From sequence record NC_052661.1: a DNA stretch of 64,000 bases; one strand, written 5' to 3'. Numbering within the stretch: the first letter of the stretch is position 1; each line of letters begins with the position of its first letter. Below, piece by piece: positions 59,276 to 61,639 of the stretch. Under the pieces are notes generated by a model. It was not told the origin of the DNA. It searched no databases and was given only the letters and a program-made list of their open reading frames with translations. The stretch is from Escherichia phage ukendt. The position numbers and the translations under genes are program-made.

Positions 59276-59639
59276 TTTCTGTAAGAAAAATCTCGTTTGC
59301 TTTCTTCCACAAATCTAAATCGTGAAGGGTTGGAATACGATATGTTAGTTCACAGAATCTATGCTCTTCTTCTGTAATATAACCAAAATGCAGAGCCACA
59401 TCGTGAAACCAACACCAACCATGCATCTCTCGAACAACATGGTCATGCTGAGACATTGTTTTATGCCGTAAACCTAACCAACAAGGAACAGATACTTTAG
59501 TAGTCTTTAATCTGTGATCAACAATATTAGAGTATTCAATAATAGCTGTCAGTTTCAATCGTGCTTTTTCTAAATCCTCGTGGGTCACTTTGAAATAACT
59601 TTCTGAAAGATATCCACACATATTAATAACCTCCTTCAA
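59226..59639 (-). CDS. hypothetical protein
   Basis: 137 aa ORF. Confidence 0.45.
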   Translation of the reverse strand: MKEVINMCGYLSESYFKVTHEDLEKARLKLTAIIEYSNIVDHRLKTTKVSVPCWLGLRHKTMSQHDHVVREMHGWCWFHDVALHFGYITEEEHRFCELTYRIPTLHDLDLWKKANEIFLTESDWRKVMACLEWRGNE

Positions 59640-60564
59640 AAGGCTTAACTACATGTTGATTAGCTTTAAAACGTTCAACATAGTCGTTTTCACCCATGTT
59701 TTCATATAGCTTAGTAACAACATAAAAGTTTTCCCAAGCATATTCCCTAAACCAACCACTAGTGATGGATGTGCAGACTTTAGATAAAGCCATTATAAAA
59801 CTTTGCTTAGGGGTTGGACCTCCGATCTCTCCACCGAAAGGAATTTGTGAACGTTCCAAAGCCAAAACACACGCTTCTTCATAAACACCTAACAGGCGCA
59901 CATGTTTTGGTTGAGCAAAAAACTTTTCTTTGCTGGTCATAACTTCACTTCCATCCTTCATATAAGATTTATATGCTGGAGCATCCATTACTGCGATTGC
60001 TTCATGAATAGAGTCATGATCATAAACATACGGAACCTCATCACCTTTAAAGAAGTCTTTACTTCTCACGTTTAAGTTTGGATGAGAGTAAGTGTATGTT
60101 TCTTTCTCACGCAACTCATAAATACTCTTAAGATTTTCTGGGATCTTTGCGCCTAGTGATCGCATGAAATGAATATCTTTCATAGTTTTAAAGAAGTGAG
60201 GACTATCCTTTTTAAAACGATGACTCATTTTAAGAAGGTAGAGCACATCTAAAGGAGCAACAACGTGTCCAGCGTAAGTTCGACGAATATCATCAGAGTC
60301 TTCACAATAACTAATCAAAGCTTCTGTGCTATCTCCTTGAGAAGCAATATCGTATTCCAAGTGTGCACCAGCTATCATTTTGACATGGCCCTTGTTCCCT
60401 TTACGCTCTACAAGTTCAACAAACTCATCTTGAGAGAACATTTTTGATAATTCTTCCCACTCTTGTTCTGTACAGAGATAATCTAAATCTACACAAGGGC
60501 GATACAAGTCTTTTCCCATGTCCATAGCATGAATTTGTAATGCACGGCTACCAATTAACACCAT
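59623..60564 (-). CDS. hypothetical protein (possible nucleotidyltransferase fold)
   Basis: 313 aa; N-terminal GS...DLD pattern; sigma70-like promoter upstream. Confidence 0.45.
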   Translation of the reverse strand: MVLIGSRALQIHAMDMGKDLYRPCVDLDYLCTEQEWEELSKMFSQDEFVELVERKGNKGHVKMIAGAHLEYDIASQGDSTEALISYCEDSDDIRRTYAGHVVAPLDVLYLLKMSHRFKKDSPHFFKTMKDIHFMRSLGAKIPENLKSIYELREKETYTYSHPNLNVRSKDFFKGDEVPYVYDHDSIHEAIAVMDAPAYKSYMKDGSEVMTSKEKFFAQPKHVRLLGVYEEACVLALERSQIPFGGEIGGPTPKQSFIMALSKVCTSITSGWFREYAWENFYVVTKLYENMGENDYVERFKANQHVVKPFEGGY

Positions 60565-60589: not shown

Positions 60590-60618
60590 GGTTAAGTTTA
60601 TCAAGCTTCCAGATTTCT
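60590..60618 (-). promoter_or_regulatory. sigma70-like promoter
   Basis: On the minus strand: TTGACA, 17 nt, TAAACT, upstream of the gene starting at 60564. Confidence 0.45.
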
Positions 60619-60622
60619 GTCA

Positions 60623-60650
60623 ATAAAAAACCCGCCGAAGCGGGTTATTA
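60623..60650 (-). terminator. rho-independent terminator
   Basis: AACCCGC-TTCG-GCGGGTT followed by TTTTTTATTG on the minus strand. Confidence 0.6.
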
Positions 60651-60654
60651 TTTA

Positions 60655-60927
60655 CTAACACATTGAGGAAGAAGAGATCCAAACACCTCTTGTGGTTAAA
60701 CCATTTTCATCCAACTCTACACCATAATCTTCACAAATGAAATCAATATAGTGATCTGCGGCTGGCGTTCCTGTAGGGTAATAAGTTTCTCCGTTACCGT
60801 AGTCACCTATCCAAGCTTGTTCCTGAAACTGTTCACAAAGTTCTTCAATCTCCTTACGAAACTTTCTTTGTGCTTGTTCCATCTCTTTAACTTTCTTTTT
60901 TATCAGCAGTTCGCCTTCAGACTCCAC
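60655..60927 (-). CDS. small protein, C-terminal W-x-SSS-C family
   Basis: 90 aa; ends GVWISSSSMC. Confidence 0.5.
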   Translation of the reverse strand: MESEGELLIKKKVKEMEQAQRKFRKEIEELCEQFQEQAWIGDYGNGETYYPTGTPAADHYIDFICEDYGVELDENGLTTRGVWISSSSMC

Positions 60928-60936
60928 AATCTCTCC

Positions 60937-61197
60937 TTAACAGCTACTACTGTGCCAAACGCCTTGAGAATTAACGACGAAACCATCATCACCTTCACCA
61001 TAACAAGAAGAGGATTGCCAATCTTCAAAACAGATTGCGTCATTTTCTAAACTAAGACCAAAACCAGCATCTTCAGCTTCTTTTGTAAGTTCGTCCACTA
61101 AAGCCATAATAGCTTGGGCTTTTTCAGTTAATTCTTCAACATTACGATCACTCATTAGTATTTCTCCTCTGGTTGGAAAACTGAACGACAAGCCCAC
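60937..61197 (-). CDS. small protein, C-terminal W-x-SSS-C family
   Basis: 86 aa; ends GVWHSSSC. Confidence 0.5.
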   Translation of the reverse strand: MGLSFSFPTRGEILMSDRNVEELTEKAQAIMALVDELTKEAEDAGFGLSLENDAICFEDWQSSSCYGEGDDGFVVNSQGVWHSSSC

Positions 61198-61469
61198 ATA
61201 CTAGCTTCTTTTAAATGTTTAATAGCACAACGGATTTGATCAATACGTTCGTATGCAAGATCTAATTCTTTTTCTGTGCCGTCAAAAGACCCATGATATG
61301 CTTCACAATACTCTTCCTCTAAAGCTTTGAAGATTAAACCTAAACGCTCTTCTGCATCTTTAATAGCGTTAACCTTGCCAATCTTATCGTCAGTATGCGC
61401 CTTATAACCTTTGATATCTTCGATTCCCACTTTACCTCCTATTAACAACTTAAAGAAGATGGGTGCCAA
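61155..61469 (-). CDS. hypothetical protein
   Basis: 104 aa ORF. Confidence 0.45.
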   Translation of the reverse strand: MAPIFFKLLIGGKVGIEDIKGYKAHTDDKIGKVNAIKDAEERLGLIFKALEEEYCEAYHGSFDGTEKELDLAYERIDQIRCAIKHLKEASMWACRSVFQPEEKY

Positions 61470-61639
61470 TTTGTTCCAGTATTCTCATTTTCATCTTCTG
61501 GATCATAATAGCCACCCATCCCATATTCAGGGGAGAAACGGAAACCTTTACCAGTCTCATCTGCTAACTGCTCTGCTTCCGCTAAAGCCTCATAAGCTGC
61601 TTTTACGGCTTCTTCTACTGTTTTAAACTTGGTCGTCAT
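61442..61639 (-). CDS. small protein, C-terminal W-x-SS-x-SC family
   Basis: 65 aa; ends NWHPSSLSC. Confidence 0.45.
   Translation of the reverse strand: MTTKFKTVEEAVKAAYEALAEAEQLADETGKGFRFSPEYGMGGYYDPEDENENTGTNWHPSSLSC

Follow-up and report, generated by a model that had tools for sequence, protein, structure and literature searches.

A near-invariant Trp-Ser-Ser-Cys chain end on small acidic phage proteins encoded beside a MenT/AbiEii-like nucleotidyltransferase gene

The window analysed, a stretch of 64,000 nucleotides from Escherichia phage ukendt (NC_052661.1), comes from a Phapecoctavirus, a phAPEC8-like E. coli myovirus, and harbors three small open reading frames on the minus strand, in the order ORFs C, B and A, all of which lie before a nucleotidyltransferase (NTase) gene, as shown in Table 1. 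The chain ends GVWISSSSMC, GVWHSSSC and NWHPSSLSC, which the first-pass annotation had read from these frames, were confirmed from the sequence. All three products are acidic, ORFs A, B and C having net charges of -10, -13 and -8 (pI 4.0–4.4), and in the predicted model of ORF A a long N-terminal helix spans residues 4–34 (AF2 pLDDT 93.6). The frames had further been called tandem, which is not strictly so, as a gene of the Acb2/Tad1 type lies between ORFs B and C. This intervening gene matches PF24729 with E=1.2e-16 and 61 bits against a gathering cut-off of 27 in Pfam, belongs to phrog_717, and its stop codon overlaps the ATG of ORF B (TAATG). ORF B carries an extra internal DWQSSSC at 61003-61020, with WQSSSC just before its YGEG loop. 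The surroundings in the window constitute an accessory early region, where DprA/SLOG-like, Sir2-family and metallophosphoesterase genes are found near ORFs A–C.

Table 1. Positions of the small open reading frames and of the neighbouring genes and signals in the window.
Feature	Position	Strand	Description
NTase partner gene	59623..60564	-	313 aa, DUF7277+DUF7275; MenT/AbiEii/ANT-type nucleotidyltransferase fold
Sigma-70-like promoter match	60595..60623	-	Consensus match only: TTGACA, 17 nt, TAAACT with TG; ahead of the NTase gene
Terminator-like element	60629..60646	-	GC hairpin followed by a T-run; directly 3' of ORF A
ORF A	60655..60927	-	90 aa, GTG start, AAGGAG ahead; tail WISSSSMC at 60658-60681; YGNGETYYP loop and helical insert
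ORF B	60937..61155	-	72 aa from ATG (MSDRN...); divergent family member; short tail WHSSSC at 60940-60957
Acb2/Tad1 hairpin-domain gene	61155..61430	-	91 aa, GTG start, AGGAGG ahead; not a family member
ORF C	61442..61639	-	65 aa; canonical YGMGG loop; tail WHPSSLSC at 61445-61468

All three products match PHROG 899 (E=5.1e-14, 1.4e-5 and 1.2e-12 for ORFs A, B and C, respectively), with matches that reach profile positions 218–221 of 221, and a family HMM recovered ORF C with E=1.9e-32 and one built from A2 recovered ORF B with E=8e-20; judged from these sequence matches, ORFs A, B and C are true paralogues. The family comprises at least 562 clusters at 50% identity (E≤1e-3), and among the 148 best representatives the terminal residue is exactly cysteine in 143, of which 142 have Trp(-8) and all 143 have Ser-Ser(-5/-4). 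The family, only about 25% identical over its remaining sequence, thus keeps Trp(-8), Ser(-5), Ser(-4) and the final Cys near-invariant, and an invariant YG-x-G loop is conserved alongside the tail. ORFs A and C fit the pattern W-x-[S/P/A]-S-S-x-x-C-COOH exactly, while the tail of ORF B (WHSSSC) is a variant two residues shorter, in a protein whose helix, YGEG loop and final Cys are all in place and whose subcluster was found in 26 loci; relatives of ORF A in T4-like phages share 42–57% identity with it. In the window, ORFs A, B and C are the only motif carriers among 1064 stop-to-stop ORFs, and in a set of 16,454 ORFs from 80 related loci all 134 matches to the strict pattern W.[SPA]SS..C stand at a C-terminus, none lying inside a chain, while six composition-matched control patterns had no match there; the motif is thus far beyond chance. 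It had been proposed that the tail be sought in other phages, and there it proved to be the most conserved part of the homologues, so that the refuting case named in the first-pass annotation, a likeness in these few residues that homologues do not conserve, does not apply.

The members of the family are small acidic alpha/beta proteins (median net charge -7.5) with a common architecture, which includes an N-terminal amphipathic helix, a short strand, the YG-x-G(-YYP) loop, a variable acidic insert and the end G-W-x-[S/P/A]-S-S-x-x-C-COOH. Extra upstream W-x-S-S repeats were observed in 23 of the 148 members, where they sit in acidic low-complexity linkers outside the fold. In ten longer members, the N-terminal extensions contained no known fused domain according to Pfam, and a BFVD search returned only uncharacterised family members. 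The PHROG 899 entry gives the function as unknown and mentions neither the terminal motif nor the NTase linkage described below, and a literature search on the family names, the RB69 ORFs, phage MenT-like NTases and C-terminal Cys motifs retrieved no relevant record; the family is large and uncharacterised, its small protein having neither a Pfam entry nor a solved structure. A Zn or disulfide site within a single chain was considered and rejected for the monomer, because the terminal Cys is the sole Cys in 88 of the 143 Cys-ending representatives.

Two readings would place the meaning of the motif within the small protein itself or in its cellular fate. According to the first, the motif serves mainly to close off the fold at its C-terminus, as a cap in which Trp belongs to the core, Ser-Ser caps the N-terminus of the last helical turn and Cys packs, so that the tail carries no signal. 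The AF2 model of ORF A is in line with such a cap, as it has the tail in a strand at 82–85, including W83, and a helical turn at 86–89 (S86–M89) with a pLDDT of about 88, and the invariance of the YG-x-G loop goes along with that of the tail; however, caps normally allow conservative substitutions and short extensions, whereas 143 of 148 representatives stop at Cys, the W, S and S are 99–100% invariant across clusters below 50% identity, and the extra W-x-SS repeats lie in linkers beyond the fold, which together make a purely structural role unlikely. The second takes the tail for a lipidation site or a proteolytic degron. Conserved, strictly terminal motifs are typical of degrons and C-terminal lipid anchors generally, and the motif is both conserved and strictly terminal, but the N-termini are hydrophilic and helical with no lipobox or hydrophobic signal segment on inspection, no transferase or protease is conserved nearby, and the tail is predicted to lie within a confidently folded domain instead of forming a free disordered tag. 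To our knowledge, the motif is also unlike the C-terminal degrons of the ssrA, SulA and MuA types, and it is not a CaaX box because the Cys is the last residue. The suggestion of the first-pass annotation that the tail is a shared modification or targeting signal is hence strongly supported as regards a common functional signal; of the examples given there, lipidation finds no support in view of the acidic character of the proteins, the lack of an N-terminal lipobox, the position of the Cys at the very end and the absence of a conserved lipid-transfer enzyme nearby, nor does a degron in view of the tail modelled as folded, and a lipid anchor or degron appears highly improbable.

The partner NTase belongs to a family of at least 2,209 clusters at 90% identity and exhibits a MenT-type fold with the catalytic signature hG[GS]...[DE]x[DE] and intact catalytic motifs; its invariant residues comprise G5-S6...D26-x-D28, K112/H115/R116, D182-H183-D184 and the block KVCTSITSGWFRE. 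The structural neighbours recovered in a fold search include MenT, ANT(2'') and LnuA. MenT acts on the ribose 3'-OH and ANT(2'') and LnuA on antibiotic hydroxyls, in agreement with the general habit of Pol-beta-type NTases of passing NMP to hydroxyls. The spacing H115...H183-D184...H187 had suggested that DUF7275 might be an HD phosphohydrolase, in the manner of a GlnD-like NTase+HD protein, and this idea was dropped because the residues fit MenT-type NTP-binding motifs instead; no HD proteins were seen among the top fold matches. As for the genes near the NTase, RNA ligase 2 was observed in 4 loci and a PNK-like gene in 10, the latter all from one jumbo lineage; 24 of 87 loci have tRNA genes, and in Streptomyces phage BillNye distant DUF7275 relatives are surrounded by genes for PNK and RNA ligase. 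This RNA-repair context is a weak pointer to a tRNA substrate, because much of it mirrors the T4-type gene map.

The small genes and the NTase gene are closely associated in the genomes where either was found. Starting from the NTase, the strict motif was detected in 70 of 80 loci and the loose motif in 77 of 80; all 134 strict-motif matches lie on the NTase strand, and 199 tail ORFs are upstream of the NTase against 4 downstream, the median gap being 720 nt. In the reverse direction, 13 loci were located from the small protein with a back-translated YGMGGTYYP DNA pattern; the NTase was directly downstream in 10 of them, and the remaining 3 are truncated. The same order, small genes and then NTase, was also observed in RB69, phiPsa397, ACP17, Konradin, Ps15, Mx1 and RSP15, and one to four paralogues occur per phage. 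When same-strand ORFs of 81 neighbourhoods were clustered, only the NTase and the small family were universal, every other cluster being present in at most 23 loci. The module was found in T4-like phages (RB69, JS98 and relatives), Phapecoctavirus, Otagovirus, Acinetobacter, Stenotrophomonas, Ralstonia and Myxococcus phages and jumbo phages, with 734 phage records and 197 viral contigs on the phage side, while a scan of one genome per species over 185,579 species of bacteria and archaea gave 4 loci, all on MAG contigs; it is thus essentially phage-only, unlike the resident two-gene addiction or abortive-infection modules of bacteria. The placement of the small genes, almost always just upstream of the MenT/AbiEii-like NTase gene, points to an undescribed two-part phage module, and this tight coupling to one NTase gene makes a shared modification or docking role plausible. 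In the one lineage whose tail is altered or lost (L062 and L074), the NTase carries the substitutions T127N, I131Y, F256W, T268S and F272W. The remaining NTases show little or no variation at these positions, so that tail and NTase may co-vary, as read from sequence in this single lineage.

The genomic setting also bears on the proposal that the tail targets a host factor and that the small proteins are anti-defence or host-takeover proteins, such as acidic nucleic-acid mimics or inhibitors of AbiEii/MenT toxins or of CD-NTases, linked to the phage NTase at the pathway level only. Small, very acidic phage proteins are often mimics, several paralogues per genome would suit several host targets, and the genes lie in an early accessory region with the Acb2/Tad1-family sponge gene nested among them and the DprA/SLOG-like, Sir2-family and metallophosphoesterase genes close by, Acb2 homologues being present within 6 kb in 18 of 81 loci. 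Yet the NTase is linked in 77 of 80 loci, whereas the other clusters reach 23 of 81 at the most, and so tight a linkage, together with the fixed gene order, would be unusual for mere co-location in an accessory island, and neither a match to solved anti-defence proteins nor a literature record was found for such a role, which is regarded as rather unlikely.

The most likely role of the tail, as we infer it, is to engage the acceptor-end pocket of the NTase, either as pseudo-substrate or as acceptor. On the basis of the paralogy, the motif invariance, the confidently predicted fold, the synteny, the NTase fold with its intact catalytic motifs and the restriction to phages, ORFs A–C may tentatively be considered pseudo-substrate regulators that form a two-component module with the NTase, for which the interaction, its site, the direction of regulation and the substrate of the NTase are conjectured as follows. 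In the MenT/AbiEii enzymes, whose fold the NTase has, a dead-end acceptor pocket takes up the tRNA 3' end as a single strand, and the chain end of the acidic small protein would enter the corresponding pocket of the NTase, where Trp might stack, the two Ser hydroxyls might contribute, and the Cys thiol and the free carboxylate might come near the metal site; the small proteins would then regulate the NTase as pseudo-substrates, much as MenA1 blocks the active site of MenT1. Insertion into a pocket would explain the strictly terminal position of the motif, its invariance amid the drift of the remaining sequence, and the location of the small genes ahead of the NTase gene. Since AF2 puts the tail within the fold of the isolated protein, it would need surface exposure or a rearrangement to enter the partner. 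The strong acidity of the small proteins, the MenA1 precedent and the possible L062/L074 co-variation count for such regulators; on the other side, one to four paralogues per phage would be surprising if the proteins simply inhibited one enzyme, the C-terminus of MenA1 is dispensable whereas the C-terminus is the conserved part here, the NTase lacks a basic character overall (median pI 6.3), and the terminator-like hairpin and the promoter-like site stand between ORF A and the NTase gene.

The nearest parallels for a regulator of this kind are the pairs MenA1-MenT1, AbiEi-AbiEii and MenA3-MenT3, in which a minimal pol-beta-type NTase gene is likewise immediately preceded by a small gene. The antitoxin MenA1, with 68 aa and a helix of about 32 residues, blocks the MenT1 active site, and its C-terminus is not needed (PMC10435456), and the proteins of the window, with 65–90 aa and a predicted N-terminal helix of about 31 residues, are similar in size and in the length of the helix. 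The differences are that MenAT and AbiE have one partner, compared with one to four paralogues in the present phage-only module, and that the phage enzyme is longer, has extra C-terminal helices and the invariant KVCTSITSGWFRE, and stands outside DUF1814/AbiEii by sequence, no such membership being found in Pfam at E≤1, PADLOC or NCBIfam, which gave only DUF7275 and DUF7277. No homology of the small proteins to a known antitoxin (MenA1 or COG5340/AbiEi) was detected. For a motif at the chain end, a functional analogy is offered by tail-insertion inhibitors such as the carboxypeptidase inhibitors and by the acidic tails of SSB and T7 gp2.5, which end in an aromatic residue; here a terminal residue with a free carboxylate and aromatic and acidic neighbours is bound by a pocket of the partner; there is no kinship of sequence or fold with these proteins.

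The tail could also be the true substrate of the enzyme. The small proteins would in that case be acceptors, of which the NTase nucleotidylylates the invariant Ser residue(s), the loop Tyr or the terminal Cys and which it might even extend to protein-nucleotide conjugates, the paralogues being payloads with one recognition handle; we hold this to be possible but doubtful. A coupling of enzyme and substrate accounts for a short invariant motif on divergent paralogues that occur in one to four copies upstream of a single enzyme, and the hydroxyl acceptors used by the structural neighbours agree with it. The W-x-S-S repeats of 23 members are as expected of multi-site acceptors, and the variant tail of L074, which lacks both W and C, still offers Ser and Tyr hydroxyls in an acidic context. 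Transfer of phosphate onto Ser or Thr is possible in the active sites of the MenT family (PMC11375011). The need for Cys as the last residue is, however, not obviously explained by an acceptor, and the tail is modelled as folded. The systems MntA-HepT, GlnD-PII and GlnE-GS are alike in that a small partner, encoded next to a pol-beta-fold NTase or acted on by it, offers a hydroxyl within a conserved motif, and the invariant Tyr of YGxG and the Ser-Ser of the phage proteins are hydroxyls available in a comparable manner. The known acceptors in these systems are Tyr residues and not a C-terminal Ser-Ser-x-x-Cys, neither a HEPN nor a PII fold was found in the small proteins, and we know of no precedent for Ser-O-nucleotidylylation by a MenT-like NTase.

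A further chemistry would resemble that of ribosomally made, modified peptides, with O-nucleotidylylation of Ser(-4) as the activating step, followed by elimination to dehydroalanine and attack of the terminal Cys. S(-4) and C(-1) are fixed in 143 of 143 Cys-ending representatives, and the resulting S-x-x-C-COOH spacing equals that of the C-terminal lanthionine or AviCys ring of lanthipeptides, with which the phage loci also share several precursor-like genes before a single enzyme gene, and an NTase could, as we infer, in principle supply the leaving group. In the 81 neighbourhoods, however, no dehydratase, lyase, cyclase, HFCD decarboxylase, YcaO, radical-SAM, protease or exporter gene is conserved, and none of LanB/C, LanM, LanKC or LanD is conserved in co-location. 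The phage proteins are, moreover, predicted to be confidently folded domains, differing from leader-core peptides, they are encoded in virulent phages and not in biosynthetic clusters, and the S-S-S-C spacing of ORF B is different, so that formation of such a ring by this route is thought very improbable. Taken more broadly, it is fairly doubtful that the Ser-Ser or the terminal Cys is O- or S-nucleotidylylated, extended to a short protein-linked oligonucleotide or, alternatively, eliminated into a C-terminal thioether ring.

What has been observed is a chain-terminal motif of eight residues, almost perfectly invariant and tied to a single enzyme that has the fold of tRNA-end-modifying toxins, in a module that is abundant. 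If the acceptor or the thioether-ring reading were true, the module would represent a phage-specific protein modification system with one to four carrier proteins per genome and a chemistry not yet described for viruses. Whichever outcome applies, hundreds of 'hypothetical' genes of model and therapeutic phages would gain a function, and each of the possible outcomes, namely the regulation of a MenT-like enzyme by a viral protein, a new nucleotidylylation of proteins or the inhibition of host immunity of the NTase type, would link phage biology to the field of the MenT/AbiE toxins.

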